Below, one piece after another: positions 2,817 to 40,126 of a DNA stretch of 64,000 nucleotides. Below the pieces are notes generated by a model, which worked only from the letters and a program-made list of their open reading frames with translations, ran no database searches and was not told the DNA's origin. This stretch comes from a bacterium (GTDB lineage: Bacteria > UBA8248 > JACPRG01 > G963555815). The DNA is taken from assembly GCA_963555815.3 (NCBI GenBank), contig CAUVWX020000001.1, forward strand, positions 512,001 to 576,000, written 5' to 3'. Both the position numbers and the translations under genes were made by a program. Numbering within the stretch: position 1 is the first letter of the stretch; every line of letters starts with the position of its first letter.

Positions 2817-5177
2817 TTAGGGCTCGATAGCGGTCTCCGCCTGAAGCGGTTCAGCCGCCCGGGATCCGACAATGGGAATGATCACCCGTTCCCCCGTGCT
2901 CAACCGGGAAAGGATTTTGTCAAAATTATATCTGGCCACGAGCCAGAAGGGAACCCCATAGCGTTGACGGGCGAGGTCCCAGATATTCTCCCCGGTCTGG
3001 AGGGCGTGGAGCTGGGTCCCCTCGACCTGGTAGACCTCAAAGAAGTCCTCTTCTAGCCCCCTGTGATACTCAAGCCGTCTTGCCTCGAACACCTCCACGC
3101 CCACTTTTTCAAAGGTGAGTGAGATCCGCTGTCCGACCTGAATGGCCCTCCCGCGCCTGAGCCTGTTCAGGCGTCGGAGGGCCTGGGTCTTCACCTCAAG
3201 CCAATCGGCAAAATGGCCCAGGGTCTCCGCCGGCTCAACGATGATCCAGCCCCGCTCCCTGGAGGTTTCTGGAAATCCAACCTCGGAGATGGCGAGAGGA
3301 GAGGGAGGCGGGGCCTCCTCCTCGGCCGGGGGCACCTTCGGGCTCCCGTCTGACGGGACGGTTTCCTTTTCCAAGGCCTCGTCAGGGATCTTCTCAGGGA
3401 TGTCCTCTTGGACAGTCACAATCTCCTCTTTCTCAGGTTTCTCAGAAGGTTTTAAAGGGCTCGGTTTCGGCTCATCCTGTTCAAGACGGGCCAGCATCGT
3501 TCTCTCCACCCCGGGGATGGCGAGGACCACCCCTTTGCGGACGTGGTTCGGGTTCCGAAGGCCGTTGGCGGCCATAAGGGCCTTGACGGAGGTCCCAAAG
3601 AGGCGGGCGATCTCGGTCAGCGTATCCCCCCTTCGCACTTGATACGACTGAGGACGCTCCCGCTTGATGGACGCCTGCGTCGAGGGAATGGTCAGAACCG
3701 TCCCTTTACGAACGTGGTTCGGGTTCCGAAGGTTGTTGGCGGCCATGAGGGCGTTGACGGAGGTCCCAAAGAGGCGGGCGATCTTGCTAAGCGTATCTCC
3801 CCTTTGGACTCTATACGACCCGGGGCGGCCTTGTTCTTTGGACCCCTGCCCTGAGGGGATGGCGAGGACCGCCCCTTTCCGGATGCGGTCCGGGTCTCGG
3901 ATATCGTTGACCGCCACAAGGGCGTTGAGGGAAGTCCCGAAGAGGCGGGCGATCTTGATGAGCGTATCTCCCCGCCGGACTCGATACCACTGGTCTCGCT
4001 GTTGGCTTCTCGACTTTTCCTCGGAAGGAATGGCGGCATAGGCCCTGGCGATCTCTTCTCCACTCCCCGGAGGCACCCGAAGGGGATAGCCTCTCGGGAG
4101 ATACCGCCTTCCATCCAGGATAGGACGGCGAAGGGCCGGGTTCAGCGCTCGGATCTCCTCCTGCCCCAGGCCAAGGTGCCGGGTGATGGTCTCCATTCCA
4201 ATGTAGTCAGGAATTTCGAAAACATCGAATTTCAAGGGAGACGCAAAGGGAACCCCGCCGAAATATTTTTCTGGGTGATTGTCGACCTCTCTTGCCGCCA
4301 GAAATTCGGCGTAAAAATTCTTCGAGGCGAAGCCGAAGACCCGCCCCCTGTAGCGTCGGATAATGGTGGAAAGGTCTTTGGTCCCCACCGTGCGGACGGC
4401 TTTTTTCATCCCTCCGAGGCCATGGTTATAGGCTGTTACGGCGAGGGGCCAGCTCCCCAGTTCCGCAAAGTTCACTTTCAGGAGTTTTGCCGCCGCTTCA
4501 GTGGCGAGAATGGGGTCCCGGCGCTCATCGATGGCGTAATTGATGGTGAGGAACCTTCGGCCCGTGTCCCGCGTGAACTGCCAGATCCCCGCAGCCCCGT
4601 ATCTGGAAAGGGCGTGGATCTGAAAGGAGGACTCCACATGGGCGATGGCGATGAGATCCTCCGGCAGGCCGTGCTGGCGAAAGATCTCCTTCATGCGGTC
4701 CAGATAAAGCCCGGACCGGACAAGGCCCTCGCGGAACCTCTCTTTAAGTCCCAGTTGCCCGCGAATGTTCTTTCGGGCCTCCTGCAGGCTGTAGCCGCGC
4801 TCCGGGCGCGTCAGCTCGAGATAAATCCGCCTCTGGGGGCTCGACAGCTGCGAGGGGTCGGGCGAGTGTTTCCTCCAGGAGTCAAGGAGCTCACGGTAGC
4901 GCCTCTTGGCTCGACGAGTCGCGGCCTCCCGCCGTTTGGGGCTGACCTTGCCTGAAGGGCCGCGCCCATCAAGCTGGATGACTTCATAGACCAGGTCCAG
5001 GTGATCGGTATCGTGGATGACAACCTGATTCCTGCCGTACTTGGTGAAGATGTCGATCCAAAATTTTTGAGCCGTCTCCAGACCCTTGGGAGTGAGAAAG
5101 GCATCCTGCGCCCCGCCGAGGCCAGGGAAAAGGAGACTGAGGGAGATGAAGAAGAGAAAGAGGCGAATCCACATCAA
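2817..5177 (-). CDS. lytic transglycosylase (MltD-like) with multiple LysM domains
   Basis: Signal peptide; SLT motifs VESSF, AAGIWQF, AYNHG; repeated YRVRRGDTL..IA LysM units. Confidence 0.9.
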   Translation of the reverse strand: MMWIRLFLFFISLSLLFPGLGGAQDAFLTPKGLETAQKFWIDIFTKYGRNQVVIHDTDHLDLVYEVIQLDGRGPSGKVSPKRREAATRRAKRRYRELLDSWRKHSPDPSQLSSPQRRIYLELTRPERGYSLQEARKNIRGQLGLKERFREGLVRSGLYLDRMKEIFRQHGLPEDLIAIAHVESSFQIHALSRYGAAGIWQFTRDTGRRFLTINYAIDERRDPILATEAAAKLLKVNFAELGSWPLAVTAYNHGLGGMKKAVRTVGTKDLSTIIRRYRGRVFGFASKNFYAEFLAAREVDNHPEKYFGGVPFASPLKFDVFEIPDYIGMETITRHLGLGQEEIRALNPALRRPILDGRRYLPRGYPLRVPPGSGEEIARAYAAIPSEEKSRSQQRDQWYRVRRGDTLIKIARLFGTSLNALVAVNDIRDPDRIRKGAVLAIPSGQGSKEQGRPGSYRVQRGDTLSKIARLFGTSVNALMAANNLRNPNHVRKGTVLTIPSTQASIKRERPQSYQVRRGDTLTEIARLFGTSVKALMAANGLRNPNHVRKGVVLAIPGVERTMLARLEQDEPKPSPLKPSEKPEKEEIVTVQEDIPEKIPDEALEKETVPSDGSPKVPPAEEEAPPPSPLAISEVGFPETSRERGWIIVEPAETLGHFADWLEVKTQALRRLNRLRRGRAIQVGQRISLTFEKVGVEVFEARRLEYHRGLEEDFFEVYQVEGTQLHALQTGENIWDLARQRYGVPFWLVARYNFDKILSRLSTGERVIIPIVGSRAAEPLQAETAIEP
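3510..3995 (-). repeat. three tandem LysM-coding repeats (about 170 bp period)
   Basis: Near-identical DNA blocks, e.g. acgtggttcgggttccgaagg at 3541 and 3712, and gaggcgggcgatct three times. Confidence 0.85.
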
Positions 5178-5875: not shown

Positions 5876-7930
5876 ATGAACGGGGGAACCGACAAACCTG
5901 AAGTGGTCCCCCCAAAAACTTCTGCGCTTCGGACGCTCACCAAGGAGCAGCTGACAAAAATCCTTGAGGCGCATCAGAAGTGGGTGGAATCGGGGGAGAA
6001 AGAGGGGGAAAAAGCCGATCTCTCGAACACTGACCTCCGACGACGCAACCTCTCCGACACCGATCTCCGACTGGCCAATCTGAGTGGCGTTAACCTTCAA
6101 GAGGCCAATCTGCTTAAGGTCAACCTCGAAGGGGCGAGCTTGTCCAAAGCCAACCTCAAGGAGGCCAACCTGGTGAAGGCCAACCTTAAGGGAGCGAATC
6201 TGGATGAGGTCAACCTCAAGGAGGCCAACCTGACCGGGGCCAACCTCGAAGGGGCCAGTCTGAGGAGGGCCAAGCTCCAGAGGGCCAGCCTGAACGAGGC
6301 CGAGCTCCAGGGGGCCTTCCTCCACGAGACCAATCTCGATCATGCCGACCTCCACGGGGCCAGCCTGACTGATACAGACTTCCGGGGGTCAAACCTGAAG
6401 GGGGCCAGCCTCCAGGGGGTCGTAAACTTCTCAGGGGTGAAATTGGGCGGGGCCAACCTGGACGCAGTGACGCTCCCTGGTGACCTTCACAGGTTTGAGC
6501 CTCTGAGAATTGTTGATGAGGCATCCAAAAGCGCGCGAAAAATCTTCCTCACGATGCTGCTGGCATGCCTCTATGCCCTGCTGACTATTGCCACGACGAC
6601 AGACACCCGGCTCCTGACCAACTCTGCCTCCTCGCCCCTTCCCATCCTCGGGACCGCGATCCCCATCGTCTGGTTCTACTTAGCAGTGCCCCTCCTCCTT
6701 CTTGGCCACTACATTTATTTCCATGTCCACCTATTGCGCCTGTGGGAAGGTCTGGCGGATCTTCCCGCTGTCTTCCCCGACGGGAGGCCGCTAGATAAGC
6801 GGGTCTACCCCTGGCTCCTGAATTGTCTTGTGCGGGCCCATTTCCCGCTGCTGAGGAAAAACCGCCCGCCACTTTCTCGCCTGCAGGTGCATATCTCCTT
6901 CGTCCTTGGCTGGTGGGTCGTCCCGGCAACGCTCCTTCTCTTCTGGACGAGATATCTCCCCCGCCACGAATGGGCCGGGACCTGGTTTCATTTGGCCCTT
7001 CTGGCGATTTCAGCCTTTTGCGCTCTTTGGTTCCTCCAGCTCGCAAGGAGAACGCTTCGCGGCGAGGAGTTAATCCCTGTTCGTCTCAAGGGAAGATGGA
7101 GGGCCTGGGGACCATACACATCGGCCTTGAGGAGGATTTACGCGCCCTCTGCGATAGCCCTTGGCATCGGCGCCATCTTTTCTTTGTTCGCCCTCGGAGC
7201 GATTGATGGCGTTCCCCCTGCCTACTTCGCCCCTCCTGCTCGCTTCATACGGCAGGCCACTGCGCCTATCGCCCCCGACCTGAAACCGATCAACATCCGG
7301 AGATGGGTGCCAGGCGCCTTCGCGCTCATTGGCCTCAGCCCCTTCGCGGACTTCAGCGAGGTAGAGGTTTCAACCAAGCCCCCAAACTGGACGGGGCAGA
7401 ACGAAGATGAGATTGCCCTGGTGAAAGGGGCCCGTCTCAGGGGAAGAGACCTGCGATACGCCGCAGGGTTTCGTTCCTTCTTAGTCAATGCCGACTTGCA
7501 GAAGGCAAAATTTCAAGGGGCCCTCCTCCACGAGGCCGACCTCCAGAGGAGCGACCTCCAGGGGGCTGACCTGCAGGAAGTCGTCCTGTTTTCGGCGAAC
7601 CTCCAGGGGGCCAACCTGCTCCAGGCCAATCTCCAGGGGGCCAACTTGCTCCAGGCCAACCTCCAAGGGGCCGTGCTTACCCAGGCCAACCTCCAAGGGG
7701 CCGATCTGCGCGGGGCCAACCTTGAGGGGGTCGATCTTCTCCTGGCCAACCTCAAGGGGGCTGACCTGACGTTTGCCGTGGGGCTCACGCCTTCTCAGCT
7801 CAGGCCCGCGGTATCTTGGGAGCTCGCCTTCTACAGCGCCAAACTCCTCAAGGAACTCGGGCTCCCGCCCGACCACAATGAGAGGCTCCCAGAGAAACTG
7901 GTCGAACTGATAGAGAAGGGCCAAAGATAA
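5876..7930 (+). CDS. pentapeptide-repeat membrane protein
   Basis: A(N/D)LxG repeats at both ends flanking several hydrophobic helices; ATG at 5876 after AAGGAAG. Confidence 0.88.
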   Translation: MNGGTDKPEVVPPKTSALRTLTKEQLTKILEAHQKWVESGEKEGEKADLSNTDLRRRNLSDTDLRLANLSGVNLQEANLLKVNLEGASLSKANLKEANLVKANLKGANLDEVNLKEANLTGANLEGASLRRAKLQRASLNEAELQGAFLHETNLDHADLHGASLTDTDFRGSNLKGASLQGVVNFSGVKLGGANLDAVTLPGDLHRFEPLRIVDEASKSARKIFLTMLLACLYALLTIATTTDTRLLTNSASSPLPILGTAIPIVWFYLAVPLLLLGHYIYFHVHLLRLWEGLADLPAVFPDGRPLDKRVYPWLLNCLVRAHFPLLRKNRPPLSRLQVHISFVLGWWVVPATLLLFWTRYLPRHEWAGTWFHLALLAISAFCALWFLQLARRTLRGEELIPVRLKGRWRAWGPYTSALRRIYAPSAIALGIGAIFSLFALGAIDGVPPAYFAPPARFIRQATAPIAPDLKPINIRRWVPGAFALIGLSPFADFSEVEVSTKPPNWTGQNEDEIALVKGARLRGRDLRYAAGFRSFLVNADLQKAKFQGALLHEADLQRSDLQGADLQEVVLFSANLQGANLLQANLQGANLLQANLQGAVLTQANLQGADLRGANLEGVDLLLANLKGADLTFAVGLTPSQLRPAVSWELAFYSAKLLKELGLPPDHNERLPEKLVELIEKGQR

Positions 7931-24514: not shown

Positions 24515-25132
24515 GTGATCAAAGATAAACCCAGAGGGTTCACGGTCTGGTTCACAGGCCTTCCCTGCTCAGGGAAAAGCACGATTGCCGTTCTTCTCGG
24601 AGAGAAACTTCACGAGCGCGGTTTTCCGAACGTCGAGGTCTTCGACGGCGACGAAGTGCGCCGCAATCTCAGCGCCGACCTCGGCTTCTCAAAAGAGGAC
24701 CGCGATAAGCACATCATTCGCCTGGGATACCTCTGTCACCTCTTGACCCGAAACGGGGTTCCCAACATGGCGGCGGTCATCGCCCCCTACCGGGCCATCC
24801 GAGACGCCGTGAGGGCCGAGGTGGGGCGCTTCGTGGAGCTCTACGTCAAATGCCCTGTTGAGGTCTGTGCAAAGCGGGACGTGAAAGGGATGTACGCGAA
24901 AGCTTTTAAGGGTGAGATTAAGAATTTTACGGGGGTCTCAGACCCCTATGAAGAGCCCCTCAACCCCGAGATAACCGTCGAGACGGACAAAGAGTCGGTT
25001 GAGGAATCTGTCGCGCACATCCTCACCCGCCTGGAAGAATTCGGTTACATCGAGCCCGCCGATTACGTCTATTCCGAGGAAGAGAATCAGACCATCCAGG
25101 CCAAACTGAAAGGCTTGGGATATATCGACTAG
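24515..25132 (+). CDS. cysC: adenylyl-sulfate kinase with extra C-terminal LKGLGYID tail
   Basis: GLPCSGKST P-loop, DGDEVR, RDVKGMY, FTGVSDPYE; GTG at 24515 follows GAGGAG (alternative TTG at 24500). Confidence 0.95.
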   Translation: MIKDKPRGFTVWFTGLPCSGKSTIAVLLGEKLHERGFPNVEVFDGDEVRRNLSADLGFSKEDRDKHIIRLGYLCHLLTRNGVPNMAAVIAPYRAIRDAVRAEVGRFVELYVKCPVEVCAKRDVKGMYAKAFKGEIKNFTGVSDPYEEPLNPEITVETDKESVEESVAHILTRLEEFGYIEPADYVYSEEENQTIQAKLKGLGYID

Positions 25133-25390: not shown

Positions 25391-26215
25391 ATGGCACTGA
25401 TCCCACCGTTCTTTGTCGATTGTGTGGTCGCAATAGGAACTGATGATCCCGATGGAAATCGAACATGGATAGCGTCCGGCTTTCTCTATGGCTACCACCT
25501 AGGTGATAAACCCGATGGTAAAAAAGAATATGGGATATATCTCGTAAGTAACCGCCATGTTTTCGAAGACATGGCACAAGTCTACTTGCGGCTGAACCCA
25601 CAGGCAAATGAGCCTGATCGAGAATACACCCTTACTCTCCTAGACAATGACGGAGCGCCTCTATGGGTGCCCCATCCAAACCCTGAAATAGACGTAGCAG
25701 TAATAACGATCAATATTGGGTGGCTCGAAGAACAAGCTATGCAAGTGGCGTATTTCCGAAGTGACCTAGAAGCAAATGTTGAAAAGCTAAAAGACCTCGG
25801 AATAACTGAGGGTGACTTTGTATATGTTCTAGGCTTTCCCATGGGATTTGTAGGAGATCTGAGAAACACCGTCATAGTCCGCGGTGGTTCCATTGCTAGA
25901 ATACGCGACGTCTTGGCGGGGACCAGCCAAGAATTCCTTGTAGATGCATTTATTTTTCCAGGAAACAGTGGGGGACCGGTTGTATCAAAACCAGAGGCAT
26001 TATCGATTGAGGGGACAAAATCTCAAAAGACAGCCTTCCTCATTGGTATAGTTAAGTCGTATGTTCCGTATCGAGATGTAGCCATCAGTTTGCAGACAAA
26101 AAGGCCTAGGGTCATTTTTGAGGAGAACTCCGGCTTAGCAGCGGTTCATTCCGTCGATTGTATTCATGAAGCGATCCAGGAGCATCTCAAAAAGGAAGAA
26201 GCTAGCAAGCTATAA
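25391..26215 (+). CDS. trypsin-like serine protease
   Basis: Catalytic triad NRHV / IDVA / GNSGGP; visibly more AT-rich than its neighbours. Confidence 0.85.
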   Translation: MALIPPFFVDCVVAIGTDDPDGNRTWIASGFLYGYHLGDKPDGKKEYGIYLVSNRHVFEDMAQVYLRLNPQANEPDREYTLTLLDNDGAPLWVPHPNPEIDVAVITINIGWLEEQAMQVAYFRSDLEANVEKLKDLGITEGDFVYVLGFPMGFVGDLRNTVIVRGGSIARIRDVLAGTSQEFLVDAFIFPGNSGGPVVSKPEALSIEGTKSQKTAFLIGIVKSYVPYRDVAISLQTKRPRVIFEENSGLAAVHSVDCIHEAIQEHLKKEEASKL

Positions 26216-28971: not shown

Positions 28972-30648
28972 TCATTCCAGGTATCCAAGGTCCCGAAGCC
29001 GCCGGAAGGCCGTGCCTTCCCACCCCTGGGCCGCCGAAGGCGTTTCTTCCCCTGTCACGGCAACGGGGACGGGATGAGGCTCAGGGGCGCTCAGGATTTC
29101 TTCCAAGACCCGACCGTCCATCCCCACCGAAGGGGTGATCCCCAAAAGAGCGAGAAGCGTCGGGGCAAAGTCCACAAGATGGGGGGTGAACTGGCACTTC
29201 CCCAGGCGCACCCCCTCACCTGAGAGGACAAAGAATCCCTCTGGTCGGTGTGAGCCGTTCATCCCCCGGCCCCTGGCCCCCTCCACTCCCTGGAGAGACC
29301 GAACGAAGGGGCCCTTGGAGCGGGCTGGACTTCGAAGGCAGGAGTAGCTATAGCCCTCGTCGAGGGCGAGCTCTAGGAGAATGTCAGGAACCCGGCCCAC
29401 AAAGGGACCCCAGTAAACCTCCTCTCGCCGAAGGGCCCGCTCAACGAGGCGCCTCCCCGTGACGGGGTGTCTGAGAACCTTTAAGCGGCTGATGATCTCC
29501 TCCCTCAGATTCTCATATTCCCTGCCAGGCTCCACCGTCCCCTGAGGCTCCCTCCCTCGAAGGTTGATCCAAAGAGAGGGGAAATAGCTCAGCTCCTCGG
29601 AATAGACCCGGGTCTTCGCCCATTTGATCTGGCCGAAACGCAAGCGGGACTCCAACCCATTTGCCAGCTTGCCTCCGCCTGCACGAAAGACCTGTTCTTG
29701 AACCCTCCTCGGGAGATAGCCGAGGCCCAGCGTCTTCAGGGCTGAAAGGGCCCGGTAGCCCGCCCCCACTTTTCGAAAGGTCAGATGGCCCTCCCCGGCC
29801 AGCCAAGCGTTTAAGTGGATAATCTGGTTTCCTGTCCCCCCCGCCCCGTGGTCCGATACGACGAGGACTGTGACGTCATCGGGCGCCTTTTGCAGCAGGG
29901 AACCGATGGCTGAATCCACACGACGGTAGACATCTCGGATGGCGTCTCCAAAGCGCCTCGCCCCCTCTGAGTCATATCGGGGAGAGGATGGGTCGAAGAA
30001 CTTCCAGAAATGATGGCATACCGTATCTGTCTGGCCGAAGACGACACAGAAGCAATCCCACGTTTCCCGGCCCAGGAGGTACTCCGCCACGCGAGTTTCC
30101 TGCTCCAGCGATTTCAGGATCTCTTGATAGGCCCGCTCGTGCCAGCCCTTTCCGATCCGATCCTCCCGGCAAGCCGAGAGGGGGAAGAGTCCCGCCTCCT
30201 TGATGACCTCCTGGTAGAGCCCTCGAGGATGAAAAAAACTCTCGTTGAGACGCCAGGCCAGGGGGGAGTCGAATCCGCTGACCATACAGCCGTTGACAGC
30301 TTCAGGGGGGTATGTGGCGGGCATGCCGACGACGGCGACTCTTCGGCCGGCCTCACTGAGGATCCCCCAAAGACTAGAACTTTGCCGGTCTCGGGAGCTG
30401 GCGAATCGGACGGCATAGCGGCCGCCCTCCCTCAAGGTGAAGTCCACGAGACCGTGCCGCCCGGGGTTCTGACCGGTCATAAAGGAGGTCCAGGCGGGAT
30501 AGGTGGAGGGGGGAAGGGTCGACCGGACTCGCCCATAGGCCCCCTCCTTGAGGAGACGGGCCAGATGGGGGAGATCTCCCGCTCGGGCCCACGGCTCGAT
30601 GAGGTCCAGGGTGCCGGCGTCGACGCCGATGATGAGGAGGCGTCTCAA
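28972..30648 (-). CDS. alkaline-phosphatase-superfamily / nucleotide pyrophosphatase-phosphodiesterase
   Basis: IGVDAG, PPSTYPAW, DTVCH, SDHG, GSHRPEG; ends LRDLGYLE. Confidence 0.88.
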   Translation of the reverse strand: MRRLLIIGVDAGTLDLIEPWARAGDLPHLARLLKEGAYGRVRSTLPPSTYPAWTSFMTGQNPGRHGLVDFTLREGGRYAVRFASSRDRQSSSLWGILSEAGRRVAVVGMPATYPPEAVNGCMVSGFDSPLAWRLNESFFHPRGLYQEVIKEAGLFPLSACREDRIGKGWHERAYQEILKSLEQETRVAEYLLGRETWDCFCVVFGQTDTVCHHFWKFFDPSSPRYDSEGARRFGDAIRDVYRRVDSAIGSLLQKAPDDVTVLVVSDHGAGGTGNQIIHLNAWLAGEGHLTFRKVGAGYRALSALKTLGLGYLPRRVQEQVFRAGGGKLANGLESRLRFGQIKWAKTRVYSEELSYFPSLWINLRGREPQGTVEPGREYENLREEIISRLKVLRHPVTGRRLVERALRREEVYWGPFVGRVPDILLELALDEGYSYSCLRSPARSKGPFVRSLQGVEGARGRGMNGSHRPEGFFVLSGEGVRLGKCQFTPHLVDFAPTLLALLGITPSVGMDGRVLEEILSAPEPHPVPVAVTGEETPSAAQGWEGTAFRRLRDLGYLE

Positions 30649-31739
30649 GACCCAATCCCCTTCTTTGCCCCACTGGGGTCCACCGCGGTCTCTTCCTTAC
30701 CCACGGCTTCGCCCAAGACGCCTTCCGCGGCCCCGGCGACCTCCCCCTTACATTGATGATACGCGTGGGAGCGCAACAGGAAGATGAAGCCTCCGAGAAG
30801 GCTGATGAACCCGCCTACGAGAAAGCCGAGAAAGGCGAGGAGGATGGCAGCCTCCGCCTCGATCCCCACCCGAGTAAGGAAGAAGACAAAGGCCCCCTCA
30901 CGGACCCCGATCCCGGCCACAGAAAGAGGGATGACCGTCGCCGTGATCATCAGGGGCCCGACGAAGAGGATGTCCAAGGGCCTGACCGGGGCTTGCACCG
31001 AAAGGGCCGTCCCGTAATACATGAGCGTGGTCCCAAGGTGGACCAGAATAGCGAGCCCGACCGCCTGAACAATGAGGACCCGGTGGCGACGATAGATGGT
31101 GATGGTTTCGACGAAACGGCCCATCTTCTCCGCCCATCCTCCCGATTTCCACCTCCTGATGTCGACGAGTCGGCCAAAGAGCCCGGGAAAAAGGAGGAGG
31201 ATCAGGGACAGGGAGAGGGGAACACAAAAGATGAGGAGAAGGGAGAAGACCCCTTGCCTTCCAACAAACCTGGCGCCAGCAAATGAGGTGACTGCCACCA
31301 AAAAGGAGAGAGAGAACAGCCCGATCACCTTGTCTACCAATGTGACTGAAACCGAGGCCGCCGTTCGGCCGGAATACTTGGCCATGTCATACGTCCGATA
31401 GACGTCAAGGCCGATGGTGCTCGGCGTGAAGGTGCCGAAGAAACGGCCTTCGAGGAAGGAAGAGATGAGAACTTTTAAAGGGACGGCGAGATCCTGTCCC
31501 TTCAGAAGCAATCGCCACCGAAGGATGCTCGAGAATACCCCTCCCGCCTTGAAGAAGAGCGCCAGGAGGAGCCAGGCGGGGGCCATATCCCGGACGACGA
31601 CCCAAAGTCGATCAAAATCCACCTGCCAAAGGAGGGTGAGGATGAGCAGGACGCTCACCCCGACCTTCAAAAGGGTCCCCCAACCCCCTCGAAGGGCGTG
31701 GGAGACTCTTGTCACCAGACCTGCCATCTCAGTCCTCAT
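30645..31739 (-). CDS. lysylphosphatidylglycerol-synthase TM domain / flippase-like membrane protein (UPF0104)
   Basis: RWRLLL, PSTIGLD and P.SVAGIGVREG motifs; multiple TM helices. Confidence 0.82.
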   Translation of the reverse strand: MRTEMAGLVTRVSHALRGGWGTLLKVGVSVLLILTLLWQVDFDRLWVVVRDMAPAWLLLALFFKAGGVFSSILRWRLLLKGQDLAVPLKVLISSFLEGRFFGTFTPSTIGLDVYRTYDMAKYSGRTAASVSVTLVDKVIGLFSLSFLVAVTSFAGARFVGRQGVFSLLLIFCVPLSLSLILLLFPGLFGRLVDIRRWKSGGWAEKMGRFVETITIYRRHRVLIVQAVGLAILVHLGTTLMYYGTALSVQAPVRPLDILFVGPLMITATVIPLSVAGIGVREGAFVFFLTRVGIEAEAAILLAFLGFLVGGFISLLGGFIFLLRSHAYHQCKGEVAGAAEGVLGEAVGKEETAVDPSGAKKGIGS

Positions 31740-33405
31740 ACCCCAGGGCCCGAAGGCGCTTCTCGATGGCGGAGGCCTCCTCGGGGAGATAGCCCTCAGA
31801 GGGAGTACCCTCAGGCGGCCGTGGACTTTCAGGAGCGCTCACCTCTTGGCCCCTCTTCTTGGGCTGAAAGTCCGCCTCAAAGATCTCAGACAAAGGCTTT
31901 CCGTCCATCTCTTTTGGGACGGAGAGGCCGAGACTATAGAGGATGGTGGGGGTGATGTCAGCGATGTGGGAGCCAGTGACCGGCCGGCCCGAGGCCACGT
32001 GAGGCCCATGAGCCAGGAAGATCCCGTCGGGGCGGTGAAAGCCGTTTGGCACCTGGGCGCTCGACCGGATGACCTCTCGGCCCCCAAACATCGGCCGACC
32101 AAGGTAGCTGTAATTTCGGGCGACGAAGAACAGGTCCGGGGCGTAGGGGGTTTCGGGCCCGTGGTAGACCTCTTCTCGATACTGCACCGCGTCCACGATC
32201 CGCTCCCCTGTCGCCGGGTCCTTCAGGGCCAGCAACGAATCGCGAAGCCGCGCGCGCAGGGCCTCGTAGGCCTCCCCCGGGGGGACGATCCCCGCTCCGT
32301 CCCGCACCACATTAATGTAGATCCCTTGAGCTGGAATGCTGGGAAAAAAGGCCTGGGTCCGATCCCAGTCCAGGGTGACCTGAACGTCGGTCCGAAAGGC
32401 GGACTTGGTCTGACGCACCCGCTTTCGGGCAAGGGCCTGAAGGGACTGCGGGATAAGGCGTTTTAGCCAGCCCACCTCGTTCAGCCCCACGGCGTGGTAG
32501 AAGAGGCGCTGCTGCAGGGCCACCCGGCCCCTCATCTTGAGGAGACCCTGCTGCTCCAGCCAGGTGCTCACGTTGATCCAGGCCTGGGTGGGTCCAAAAC
32601 CGTGGTCAGACATGACAAGAAGAAGGGTATCAGAGGAAAGCCGCTCCACGAGGCGCCCGATAAAATCATCCATCAGACGATAGCAGTCAATGACCAAGCC
32701 TCGAAGCCGACGGGCGATTTCGCTCCTGTAGAGTTCGGTCTCAGGGTCCAGATATTTCCAGAAGACGTGCTGGAGCCGGTCGGGCAAGATGAAGACCCCC
32801 ATGAAGAAATCCCAGGGGCGGCTCTCCATAAGGTGGAAGAAAAGTTTCTGCCGCTGGGAGAAGCTTTTCCGTATCAGGTCCAGGTATGCCAGGGCGTCCT
32901 CGTAGCGCTCGGCGTCGTACTTGGGCAGGTCGATATCCGGCAGGTAGTCTCCGATCTCCCGATGGATCTCCTCCTTGAGCTCCGGGGGATAGGTATAGTT
33001 CGCCTCCGGCCCCGGTGTCATCATCCCCGAGACCATGCACCCGTCCACCGCTTCGGGTGGATAGGTCATGGGGACATTGAGGATGATGGTCTTCTTTCCG
33101 ACCCCATTCAGGAGCTGCCAGAGCCGGGGGGCGCGGATAGAGGATAGACTCAGAAGGGGGCGGTCGGGATGACGGAGGGGAGAATCTCGAAAATCGAAGA
33201 CCCCGTGTTTCCCCGGGTTTACTCCCGTAATGCATGTGGACCAGGCCGTCGGTGTCACCGGTGGAACGGTGGAGGCGAGGACCCCAGAGGCTCCCCGCCT
33301 TTGGAGGTTCGCAAGATGGGGAAGCGTTCCATCCTCCATCCAGGGGCGAAGGAGATAGAAGGTGGCCCCGTCAAGACCCAGGAGGACGACCTTGGAGATG
33401 GACAT
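31729..33405 (-). CDS. alkaline-phosphatase-superfamily / nucleotide pyrophosphatase-phosphodiesterase
   Basis: LGLDGAT, PPVTPTAW, DRLQH, SDHGFG, GFHRPDG; ends LRALGYED. Confidence 0.88.
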   Translation of the reverse strand: MSISKVVLLGLDGATFYLLRPWMEDGTLPHLANLQRRGASGVLASTVPPVTPTAWSTCITGVNPGKHGVFDFRDSPLRHPDRPLLSLSSIRAPRLWQLLNGVGKKTIILNVPMTYPPEAVDGCMVSGMMTPGPEANYTYPPELKEEIHREIGDYLPDIDLPKYDAERYEDALAYLDLIRKSFSQRQKLFFHLMESRPWDFFMGVFILPDRLQHVFWKYLDPETELYRSEIARRLRGLVIDCYRLMDDFIGRLVERLSSDTLLLVMSDHGFGPTQAWINVSTWLEQQGLLKMRGRVALQQRLFYHAVGLNEVGWLKRLIPQSLQALARKRVRQTKSAFRTDVQVTLDWDRTQAFFPSIPAQGIYINVVRDGAGIVPPGEAYEALRARLRDSLLALKDPATGERIVDAVQYREEVYHGPETPYAPDLFFVARNYSYLGRPMFGGREVIRSSAQVPNGFHRPDGIFLAHGPHVASGRPVTGSHIADITPTILYSLGLSVPKEMDGKPLSEIFEADFQPKKRGQEVSAPESPRPPEGTPSEGYLPEEASAIEKRLRALGYED

Positions 33406-33486
33406 TCCTACTCACACCCTCTCAAACTAAAAACCCGCCCACGACCACGGGCCAAAGGTGGGCCCATTTCTTAACTGGAGCCAATA

Positions 33487-33538
33487 CGAGCTCTTTAACC
33501 CTCATTCAACGTATCCGAGAGCCCTCAGACGCTCCTGC
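33487..33538. repeat. 52-bp direct repeat, copy 1 (3' end of sulfatase-like gene)
   Basis: cgagctctttaaccctcattcaacgtatccgagagccctcagacgctcctgc; 50/52 identical to 35621-35672. Confidence 0.95.
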
Positions 33539-35598
33539 AGTTCTGGGTCCACTTCAACGGGCTCCAGGTTTTCAGAGTACCGGGGGTCATTCTCGACCAA
33601 TGTGATGAAATGTTCCAGTAGTGACTCCATTTCTTCCGCTATCTTTTTTTCAGAGCCGTAGATGTTTTCTTGCTCGTTCGGATCCAATTGAAGATCGAAA
33701 AGAAATCTCTCCTGCTCCGTCTCAGGCTTTTCCTGATTGATAAATTTATATCGCCCACGAACCAAAAACCGGTGAGAACTAAGCTCGCGGCCAGGGGGCT
33801 CGCGTGAGATTTCTCCATAGATGGCCGCACTGCTCTCCTCTCCATATACGAGCGGCAACAGGCTTCTTCCCTGGAAATCCCCTAGGCCCGGAAGACCGAG
33901 GAGCTCCATGAGTGTCGGCATTAGATCCACCTGGGATCCCGACCCCTCCACCTCAAGTCCCGCGGGCAAGCTGCCGGGGTACCATAAAATGAGAGGCACC
34001 CTGAGCACTTCCTCAAAGACAGTGCCTCCATGGCCAAACCCCCGATGCTCGTAGAATTCCTCTCCATGGTCAGAAACAAAGACAATCAATGTGTTATCCA
34101 AAAACCCCCTTTCCTCTAGATTCGAGAAAAGGAATTGGAAGTTGTCATCAAAGTAACGGGTCTCTCCGTCGTATTGCGCCTGAAGGTTATGTAATTCCGC
34201 ATCCGGCAATTCCGGCGTGGTTCCATCTTCAGACGGATCCGGATGCCAAGTCAGACGCTCACCCGGATAACGGGGATCGAACAAGCGATCGTAGGGTTCA
34301 GGGGGTTCATAAGGAGCGTGGGGATCTAAGTAGTGCAAATAGACAAAGAATTTCGTCCTCTGGCCATCATAGTTTTCCACAAATGTCACATAATCGACGT
34401 AGTTCAAGACTCCACGTGTAAACTTGTCCGCACGAGGATTGCGATTTTCTATCTCCTCTCGGTTATCATTCCCGTCTCCATCAACCTCCTGAATTAGACG
34501 AAATGCCCTGCGGAGGAGGTGGCTTTTCTTCCTATCAACGATGAAAAGGCTGGTTACAACCCTATCGGACAAAGAAACAAATTTCTTCCAAACGAGAATG
34601 CGTGGCAAAAAAACGAACTTTTTCCAGACGAAAACATTCTCTAGCGACGGTTCACTGGCGAGGATCAGGGAAGGATATATCGGCGGATTTGGAACACTAG
34701 ATCTCTGGTGGTTTCGCCTGAAGGGATTCCACATCGGGTTGTGATAGTCGCATCCTACAAGCAGGCCACTGCTTTCAGTAATCAATGGGTTCGCGATAAA
34801 CGCAGCTGTGTTGTATCCGCGTCCGCGCAGAATCTCACAAAGCGCCTTAACCGGTGCCTTCTTTTGGAATGACGTTCCGTTTATTCCATGGACTGAGGGA
34901 AATACACCGGTCAAAATCGTTGCCGTCGCCGGCGGAGTCCAACTCGCGTTCGCATAGAAATTCGTAAATTTCACCCCCTCTCCCGCGAGCCTTGAAATAA
35001 AAGGGGACGTCTCCCTGGAATAGCCGTATGTGAAGAGCCGATCGGCCCGCAACGTATCCACAAGCACCAGGAGCACATTTGGAAGTGAGCGGTCTTCGTT
35101 CCGGACCTCGCGGAGACTTTTTAGAGAATAAAATGGCCGTGCAAATTCGTAGGAAAGAAAGGCTAGCATGGAAACGGTGACACCCAGCGCAAACATGCGG
35201 GCCAGTCGCCTGGGTGTATATATCAGTCCGAACCAAAGGGCCGTGGCGATCACGATGGCCGCAGGGATCGTGAAGATGAGTCTTCGGCCGATAAAAATGG
35301 TGAACGCCAACGCGAGGAACACAACGAGGTGGAATAAAAACGTGTTTCGGCCCTGCGCCCGGCGGTCGCGATCTCCCAAAAGGCGCGAATACAGGAGAAA
35401 ATGGCCCGCTGAGACTGGGAGAATCATCAAGGAGTTCAAAATGATGGCGGAGATCAGGAGATCCAAAAGATCGATCGCCGCGAAGGGATTGATCTCAGGT
35501 CTTTGGAAGGCCAGGAGGGCCGTTTCAAATACGCCCAGGCCTGCTGAGACCGCCAGCCATCCCAAAAAATCTCGCCGAAGTAGGGACCAGCGGTTCAT
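33502..35598 (-). CDS. membrane-anchored sulfatase-like hydrolase/transferase
   Basis: About 5 N-terminal TM helices, then PNVLLVLVDTLRAD, ASWTPPA, DPHAPY, SDHGEEF.EH...HG; ends LRALGYVE. Confidence 0.88.
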   Translation of the reverse strand: MNRWSLLRRDFLGWLAVSAGLGVFETALLAFQRPEINPFAAIDLLDLLISAIILNSLMILPVSAGHFLLYSRLLGDRDRRAQGRNTFLFHLVVFLALAFTIFIGRRLIFTIPAAIVIATALWFGLIYTPRRLARMFALGVTVSMLAFLSYEFARPFYSLKSLREVRNEDRSLPNVLLVLVDTLRADRLFTYGYSRETSPFISRLAGEGVKFTNFYANASWTPPATATILTGVFPSVHGINGTSFQKKAPVKALCEILRGRGYNTAAFIANPLITESSGLLVGCDYHNPMWNPFRRNHQRSSVPNPPIYPSLILASEPSLENVFVWKKFVFLPRILVWKKFVSLSDRVVTSLFIVDRKKSHLLRRAFRLIQEVDGDGNDNREEIENRNPRADKFTRGVLNYVDYVTFVENYDGQRTKFFVYLHYLDPHAPYEPPEPYDRLFDPRYPGERLTWHPDPSEDGTTPELPDAELHNLQAQYDGETRYFDDNFQFLFSNLEERGFLDNTLIVFVSDHGEEFYEHRGFGHGGTVFEEVLRVPLILWYPGSLPAGLEVEGSGSQVDLMPTLMELLGLPGLGDFQGRSLLPLVYGEESSAAIYGEISREPPGRELSSHRFLVRGRYKFINQEKPETEQERFLFDLQLDPNEQENIYGSEKKIAEEMESLLEHFITLVENDPRYSENLEPVEVDPELQERLRALGYVE

Positions 35599-35620
35599 AC
35601 TGTGTGCACCAAGCTCGAGT

Positions 35621-35672
35621 CGAGCCCTTTAACCCTCATTCAACGTATCCGAGAGCCTTCAGACGCTCCTGC
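35621..35672. repeat. 52-bp direct repeat, copy 2 (upstream of sulfatase-like gene)
   Basis: cgagccctttaaccctcattcaacgtatccgagagccttcagacgctcctgc. Confidence 0.95.
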
Positions 35673-35779
35673 GGTATCGTCGGCGGGGCCGTGGAGGCGA
35701 GCAGGCTTTCCAGGTCAGGTGCCCCAACAACCGCCGGCCCGGCTGCCACATCCACTTCGGTGCGGAGGATGAAATGCAC
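35636..35779 (-). CDS. 47-aa ORF ending QERLKALGYVE (small protein or gene remnant)
   Basis: GTG directly after the gcvH stop, with AGGAGG inside the gcvH 3' end: MHFILRTEVDVAAGPAVVGAPDLESLLASTAPPTIPQERLKALGYVE*. Confidence 0.45.
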   Translation of the reverse strand: MHFILRTEVDVAAGPAVVGAPDLESLLASTAPPTIPQERLKALGYVE

Positions 35780-36169
35780 TTAGCCGCCCTCCTCCTTAAC
35801 GTAGGCACCATAAGCCTCAGCGGAGAGCAGGCCATCCAGCTCGCCGAGGTCCGACATCTCAATGACAACCATCCAGCCATCCTCATAAGGGTCGGAGTTG
35901 ATCACCTCGGGCTGCTCTTCAAGAGCGGAATTGACCTGGGTCACCTTGCCCGAGACCGGGGCAAAAAGGTCGGAAACCGCTTTGACAGACTCCACCGTCC
36001 CAAAGGAATTGCTGGCTTCCATCTCAGCGCCCACCTTAGGAAGCTCCACGTGGACCACGTCCCCGAGCTCCGCCTGGGCGTGCTCCGTGATCCCCACCGT
36101 GGCGTGGCCCCCATCCACACGGACCCACTCGTGCTTCCTTGAGTACTTCAGCTCCTCAGGAAATTCCAT
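35780..36169 (-). CDS. gcvH: glycine cleavage system H protein
   Basis: HEWV, lipoyl-lysine motif ESVKAVSD, NSDPY. Confidence 0.95.
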   Translation of the reverse strand: MEFPEELKYSRKHEWVRVDGGHATVGITEHAQAELGDVVHVELPKVGAEMEASNSFGTVESVKAVSDLFAPVSGKVTQVNSALEEQPEVINSDPYEDGWMVVIEMSDLGELDGLLSAEAYGAYVKEEGG

Positions 36170-36505
36170 CGCCACGCTAGACTCCTCCCTACTCATTCAT
36201 CCCCGAAGCCACTGAGGAACAAATGGGCCCTATCTTTTCCCAGATGCCCGTCATTCGCGCCTGTCGTCGAGAACTCTGAATACCAAGATGCCAGAGAGCC
36301 TCGACCCGCGCAAGACTGAATTGGAAGGGGGCGATTGAAGGCTTCCTATTGGCTACTCGACTGCAGCATCCTCTGTATGGCAAAGGATCTGTCTATGTGT
36401 TTCCAGGATTTGATGCGGAAGGAGCGAGTGAAGGGCCCCCCCGATGTGAGGACCCTCGGAAAAGTCTGCGAACCCTAGTGCGGTCTTGGGCGGGATTTTA
36501 GTCTT

Positions 36506-39740: not shown

Positions 39741-40022
39741 ATGGCGCGTGGGACCGTCAAGTGGTTCAACGAGGCGAAGGGGTTTGGCTTTATCACCCAG
39801 GAAGACGGAAAGGACGTATTTGTCCACTTTTCGTCTATAAAGGGAGATGGCTTCAGGACCCTGGGGGAAGGCGAAGCCGTCGAGTTCGACATCGAGACGG
39901 ACGCCAAAGGCCCAAGGGCCGTGAACGTGGTGAGGGCCGGCCAACAGTCGAAGCAGCCGGGACAGCCGGGACAGCCGGGACAGCCGGGACAGCCGGAGCA
40001 GTCGGAACAGCCGGCTCCTTAA
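39741..40022 (+). CDS. cold-shock protein with QPG-repeat tail
   Basis: [15 protein letters not shown] and DVFVHFS (RNP1/RNP2). Confidence 0.95.
39954..39998 (+). repeat. 9-bp tandem repeat (cagccggga)x4 plus a variant
   Basis: Read directly from the sequence; encodes [15 protein letters not shown]. Confidence 0.9.
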
Positions 40023-40083: not shown

Positions 40084-40126
40084 GACAAAGGCCCCGGAGA
40101 TTTCTCCGGGGCCTTTGTCTTCTTTT
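40084..40126. terminator. intrinsic terminator between convergent csp and amidase genes
   Basis: Perfect inverted repeat gacaaaggccccggaga / tctccggggcctttgtc followed by ttctttt. Confidence 0.85.

Follow-up and report, generated by a model that had tools for sequence, protein, structure and literature searches.

Is a gene that lies between two direct repeats a mobile cassette, or can such an arrangement be left behind by ordinary gene loss? We asked this of a 64,000-nucleotide stretch of DNA from a bacterium of the GTDB lineage UBA8248 (contig CAUVWX020000001.1, positions 512,001 to 576,000; hereafter the window), in which a single sulfatase-like gene, S0, is flanked by copies of the DNA that encodes its own C-terminal LGY peptide. 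A reading of the window from its sequence alone had proposed an attL/attR-like arrangement through which surface-modifying enzymes could be inserted, excised or swapped, and, as its fallback, the remnant of a tandem array that had collapsed. We find that the fallback matches both the architecture of a sister genome and the alignment across the junction: the upstream copy probably remains from a tandem twin that was deleted, and S0 is a chimera that likely arose by ordinary homologous recombination.

The repeat and the gene between its copies

The copies at 33487-33538 and 35621-35672 share 50 of 52 nucleotides, as had been described, and 52 of 55 once extended. Each consists on the minus strand, again as claimed, of 1 nt, 11 codons, a TGA stop and 15 nt of 3′ flank. 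The exact core is 31 nt long, whereas shuffling the window's triplets 30 times never produced an exact repeat longer than 21 nt. Copy 1 (33487..33538, minus strand) is the true 3′ end of S0 (33502..35598, minus strand; 698 amino acids). The sequence-only reading had suggested looking for further copies; a search of the 2.08-Mb genome (two contigs) returned these two alone, and the repeat pattern occurs in two of seven family genomes, twice in each, with no match in the other five. A scan against Rfam gave one match, which we judge to be chance, and no sigma-70-like promoter was found in 33300-36500.

The enclosed gene is AT-rich, as had been noticed: its GC content is 0.514 (51% versus 61%) and its GC3 0.57, compared with 0.56-0.65 and 0.71-0.81, respectively, for 15 neighbours. 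Values as low as those of S0 are found in 0.9% of 639 long frames of the genome. Another AT-rich gene of the window (GC ~0.46-0.52) encodes a trypsin-like peptidase at 25391-26215, between apsK and NPP1, and was not picked up among the labelled genes of the corresponding locus in the sister genome G001.

Repeats of other kinds also occur in and beyond the window. A 171-nt unit is present in three tandem copies at 73-79% identity (3513-4025), two genes have 15-nt-period, pentapeptide-repeat-like sequences (6062-6462 and 7495-7777), and five 9-nt repeats (39944-40015) give a cold-shock-like protein a tail of QPG repeats. G001 carries a 36-nt palindrome that matches 40084-40119 of the window. Two identical 74-nt sequences in direct orientation, 4.1 kb apart and not at a tRNA, lie beyond the window (G000:C1:1146643-1146716 and 1150746-1150819).

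The repeat could in principle be an assembly error, and its 31-nt core is spanned by no unitig: the unitigs of the four sequencing runs break there. Unitig depths of the unit relative to its two flanks are low and inconsistent (2.9 versus 4.3/3.9 in X1, 7.3 versus 4.9/4.6 in X2, 2.7-3.1 versus 3.6/5.9 in X4 and 3.9 versus 3.7/3.3 in X6). Nevertheless, the upstream junction and the unit are carried by unitigs of all four runs, which come from four studies and were picked by this very sequence, so that presence of the unit in 4/4 is by choice; two of them show strain differences, with 9 and 13 listed within the unit. In addition, the exact 47-residue frame that crosses the junction is on record in another assembly, on an independent contig of 2,152,400 nt; other long assemblies contain the unit as well, and both repeat copies have counterparts in G001. 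An assembly error is thus vanishingly improbable.

A tandem pair in the sister genome

Comparison of the gcvH-to-NPP interval across relatives, which the sequence-only reading had recommended, proved informative. In G001, a sister species that shares 90-92% identity over most of the flanks and is the sole sister genome compared as DNA, two tandem paralogues, A and B, lie between gcvH and NPP3. Paralogue A encodes 706 amino acids and is intact, and paralogue B (L016, G001:C6:453963-456167) has an in-frame TAA at codon 582. The position of this stop is Gln in another strain's protein, and 48 inserted codons follow the membrane helices of B. Both paralogues end in the repeat, with tail copies that match at 51/55 and 49/55, and both are AT-rich with a GC content of 0.52 each; the AT-richness of S0, being common to A and B, is therefore older than the present arrangement.

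The two paralogues have diverged very unevenly. Their dS is 0.62-0.70 at the ends and ~4, that is saturated, in the body, and it falls to 0.14 in the last 11 codons, a value that rests on 8 synonymous sites. Beyond the stop codon, 11 of the 15 non-coding nucleotides are alike between A and B, which we count against a collapsed pair. The non-coding edge of the repeat is the point at which the 3′ flanks of A and B cease to be alike, and it lies at the same place in G001.

The upstream copy and the deletion junction

Copy 2 (35621..35672, minus strand) is probably an orphan 3′ end, comprising 11 codons, a stop and 15 nt, of the deleted upstream paralogue. It matches the tail of G001 A at 50/52 and is followed by a G001-like A-B spacer. 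This old A-to-B spacer of 37 nt (35599..35635, minus strand), the first 15 nt of which lie inside the repeat, now precedes S0, and it aligns with the A-B spacer and B start of G001, not with the region upstream of G001 A. At the deletion junction itself (35668..35672, minus strand), 2,125 nt are absent relative to G001. The microhomology there is GCAGG if the lost gene had CAG, as do S0 and B, or AGG if it had the letter of G001 A; a B-type tail peptide is present in protein P0180, which bears on these letters.

On the other side of the junction is a decayed 5′ remnant of gcvPA (35673..35779, minus strand), 29 residues of which are 69% identical to the start of an intact gcvPA-like gene at C1:74479. 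We take this 463-aa gene, which lies 3′ of the other gcvH, to be gcvPA from its position and sequence. The G001 counterpart of the remnant has an in-frame TAG. The upstream anchor of the locus is the genome's second copy of gcvH (35780..36196, minus strand; TIGR00527 over cut-off), 75% identical in DNA sequence to the one at C1:74480-74896. Together with ~36 codons of gcvPA, this second gcvH (35673-36196) represents part of the glycine cleavage operon, duplicated long ago. The downstream anchor, NPP3 (31729..33405, minus strand), is phosphodiesterase/nucleotide-pyrophosphatase-like and has its own LGY peptide, with no DNA repeat (27/52). An orphan LGY tail is found upstream of NPP3 in another genus too (L041:278-388; G005:C113), where it follows an insertion-sequence-like transposase fragment at the edge of a contig.

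Reciprocal chimeras of A and B

At the sites where A and B differ, S0 combines a B-type start with an A-type body. The sequence 5′ of its start is B-like at 20 of 22 informative sites, the first 86 columns of the coding-region alignment hold 13 B and 4 A sites, and the body is A-like at 571 of 636 sites (65 B). Downstream of the repeat, the sequence is B-like again at 13/17 sites. The 5′ crossover zone falls at 35467..35520 (minus strand; B-type before it, A-type after it) and the 3′ zone, from A-type body to B-type flank, at 33492..33568 (minus strand), which takes in most of the repeat. Each switch is significant (Fisher p 6e-10). The sites from 33568 to 33486 are mixed (5 A and 8 B), and the 3′ switch is therefore placed in or just before the repeat, within ~75 nt that include it.

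The body of S0 may not be a simple orthologue of A, to judge from a dS of 0.29 between the two, twice the 0.14 of NPP3, and from patches at 73-74% identity; it may be a close paralogue of A or partly imported. S0 has experienced purifying selection, with a dN/dS against A of 0.27, compared with 0.22 for NPP3. Strain differences in S0 comprise 9 replacement and 6 silent changes.

A third allele is the reciprocal of S0. Two other assemblies encode proteins, P0002 and P0124, that have an A start and a B body, with 14 A and 1 B sites in columns 1-45 and 1-2 A and 126-127 B sites in columns 53-315, and they switch the opposite way to S0 within the same 5′ block. They have Gln where G001 B carries its stop, and their tail peptide is identical to the orphan tail of the window. 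This allele is known from proteins of indel-rich assemblies, and its linkage to NPP3 is by equal contig sizes only: NPP3 pieces lie on contigs of the same sizes as those of P0002 and P0124. The frameshifts in the two proteins are probably sequencing errors, since NPP3 on the equal-sized contigs is in pieces too. No near-identical A-body piece was found in a short-protein search (36 matches, the best at 59%).

The reciprocal structures of S0 and P0002/P0124 indicate that the conserved gene ends, tail included, were crossover points, most likely for ordinary homologous recombination, and the three alleles, as their sequences read, entail at least three crossovers within the two conserved end blocks. 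The proposal that the tail acts as a recombination handle holds in a generic sense, given the A-to-B switch of S0 within ~75 nt including the repeat and a tail dS of 0.14 against saturation in the body, and is not supported in its attL/attR-like form.

A possible order of events

A relative with more tandem copies and chimeras with breakpoints in conserved blocks, both found here, are features of a collapsed array, and the history of such an array may be sketched in three steps. The bodies of an old pair would have diverged to saturation while crossover or conversion partly homogenised the ends. A pair of crossovers, in the 5′ block and the tail block respectively, would then have swapped the bodies between slots, either here or in the G001 lineage, probably through RecA (recA is present in the genome). 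Finally, a deletion of ~2.1 kb at 3-5 nt of microhomology, likely by slippage or end-joining, would have removed the first gene bar its tail. Ancestral orders of A then B and of B body then A body require four events each. If the B body came first ancestrally, the third allele would represent a tail-by-tail loss, which is the event that the sequence-only reading had in mind, yet by homology.

The Neisseria lgt locus offers a parallel to this collapse. Homologous ends of the lgt paralogues drive the variation in their number. As at the S0 locus, these are tandem surface-modifying paralogues whose number varies between relatives. One report describes five lgt genes in six Neisseria strains and two in one (PMC2192810). 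The S0 locus differs from this gene accordion in its enzyme family, in that one loss here is a microhomology deletion that leaves an orphan tail, and in that no phase-variable tract is shown here.

Site-specific or reversible excision

Direct repeats around an AT-rich gene are also what attL/attR elements and integron cassettes present. The genome's own att-like repeat (C1:120591/126398), unlike that of S0, overlaps tRNA-Leu and adjoins an integrase. As the sequence-only reading had stated, no recombinase is encoded in the window: PF00589, PF00239 and PF07508 have no match there. Genome-wide they have 6, 4 and 3 matches, respectively, none within 140 kb and the nearest ~143 kb away, although a recombinase might still act from such a distance. 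The integron integrase model TIGR02249 has no match over cut-off in the genome, and no tRNA was found near the repeats. A search for an attC-like hairpin in both copies and on both strands found none (z 0.07 to 0.66; flanks -0.71 and -1.60). Likenesses to Xer/dif or integron core sites, judged by eye from their motifs, were too weak to retain. The S0 unit thus differs from integrative elements and integron cassettes in being without an integrase, a tRNA, an attC-like hairpin and a second cargo.

Alternative cargo was sought between the repeats, and in this small sample of three alleles only bodies A and B were found, with no match in five other family genomes. The genome holds no silent reservoir of cassettes, its other paralogues being merely 31-49% identical and none having a B body. 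Among metagenome contigs, the tail pattern gave no match (close records may be left out), and a protein scan gave 55 loci with best segments 22-45% identical, none of them close. We also rejected an origin of the repeat by target duplication: G001 has two copies as well, each ending a whole paralogue.

Could the repeats nonetheless act today as attL/attR-like sites, with reversible excision and a mixed population of cells with and without the enzyme? A 31-nt exact core around one 2.1-kb envelope-related gene would suit such a role, and the tail block did act as a crossover point. Deletion between short repeats can proceed without RecA and without known recombinases (PMC5426353). The closest parallel is wzy of Salmonella Typhimurium, likewise a single 2-2.5-kb envelope gene flanked by direct repeats with no adjacent recombinase known, which works without an adjacent integrase by a mechanism that PMC12074656 leaves open. 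The same paper describes 113-bp identical intergenic repeats there, with both the empty site and the circle shown. The S0 repeats are instead 52 bp long with two mismatches, mostly coding and traceable to a deleted paralogue, and neither an empty site nor a circle is seen in the assemblies or in the unitigs, which break at the core. The upstream copy, moreover, is already accounted for as a deletion stump, and the unit is present in all four runs, chosen by this sequence, and in other long assemblies. The two copies mismatch at 2 of 52 sites, and neither an integron integrase, a nearby recombinase, a hairpin or a tRNA nor other cargo or an extra copy accompanies them. The coding-side edge of the repeat, aligned to G001, is the deletion junction, and the 5′ ends have crossed over too, so an attL/attR-like cassette is unsupported. 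We consider reversible excision at work today quite improbable, and a site-specific or reversible cassette unlikely. The repeats could still permit rare loss of S0, of which no instance was seen.

The S0 protein

S0 matches the Pfam profiles PF00884 (Sulfatase) and PF16347 (SGSH_C), and no NCBIfam family over its cut-off. In the predicted structure (pLDDT 80), four long N-terminal helices, which are likely a membrane anchor, precede a domain of the alkaline-phosphatase superfamily with the sulfatase fold, and a C-terminal LGY helix lies at 685-693. Foldseek relates the model to S1 sulfatases and phosphonate monoester hydrolases with E ~1e-23 and a TM score of ~0.65 by target. The metal-site residues Asp181, Asp510 and His511 are invariant. 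The formylglycine (S1) sulfatase signature is (C/S)xPxR. S0 fails this signature because the nucleophile position is Thr221, invariant in 94/94 aligned sequences, and the position of the arginine, four residues further on, is mostly V, T or I in the same alignment (residues 221-225 of S0 are T-P-P-A-T). S0 has the fold and the metal-site residues of a sulfatase and is, by its threonine, not a formylglycine sulfatase. S0 differs from S1 sulfatases and phosphonate monoester hydrolases in its threonine at the nucleophile position, its N-terminal helical anchor and its LGY tail. Its neighbours include sat, apsK, three NPP-like genes, a flippase-like gene and a GT4 gene, from which we infer that S0 is a predicted membrane-anchored, Thr-nucleophile ester transferase or hydrolase that may act on a cell-envelope substrate.

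The LGY tail and the 47-codon frame

Within the window, an LGY peptide forms the C terminus of the APS kinase, of two NPP-like proteins and of S0 (25100-25132, 28972-29010, 31729-31770 and 33502-33540), and it is likewise found at the end of 92 of 119 S0 homologues. It also ends two small unrelated proteins of 99 and 63 amino acids in family locus L171 (13832-14131 and 18337-18528). The peptide looks like a portable docking tag, and a literature search for it found no description, the tail strings surfacing in unrelated papers only.

Conservation of the peptide alone yields DNA matches of 19-35/52. The other six LGY tails of the genome match that of S0 at 22-28/52, and among 80 family loci, of which 57 have the tail and 13 have it twice or more, none of 30 same-locus pairs exceeds 35/52. 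Repeats at the DNA level are therefore not a family trait of these tails.

The upstream repeat copy closes a frame of 47 codons (35636-35779, minus strand) that the sequence-only reading had overlooked. It begins right after the gcvH stop, and the gcvPA remnant, in frame with the orphan tail, supplies its first 29 residues. Such a frame might be a selected microprotein that provides free LGY peptide, or a stump kept for translational coupling to the gene behind it. Its GTG start directly follows the gcvH stop, an inheritance from gcvPA; an identical frame is called in another long assembly; and family locus L171 has its small LGY-tailed proteins. Against a selected role, decayed gcvPA makes up the first 36 codons and is interrupted by an in-frame stop in G001, the protein forms a cluster of one member with no Pfam match at E 0.1, and an in-frame fusion arises by chance once in three. 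We thus regard selection as very unlikely and the frame as accidental. Short frames that end in LGY, in L123 and at L171:13114, look like frameshifted gene ends and were set aside as microprotein candidates.

Implications

A bolder version of the handle proposal would have the conserved start block, the LGY tail and the following 15 nt kept as handles by which this genus exchanges whole catalytic bodies, the membrane anchor on one side and the docking tail on the other staying fixed, with the gene still popping out and in between the 52-nt repeats as a recombinase-free cell-surface switch. We view this as a long shot. Were it true, the locus would join Salmonella wzy as a second case in which repeats turn an envelope gene on and off, with body swapping in addition. 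The reading that we favour, of a tandem pair shuffled and then eroded, makes this locus a clean and ordinary case, with two reciprocal chimeras among its three alleles and one orphan tail. The LGY peptide itself, a separate matter, is the more interesting object. The case cautions that a direct repeat built from the last codons of a gene can mimic att sites.
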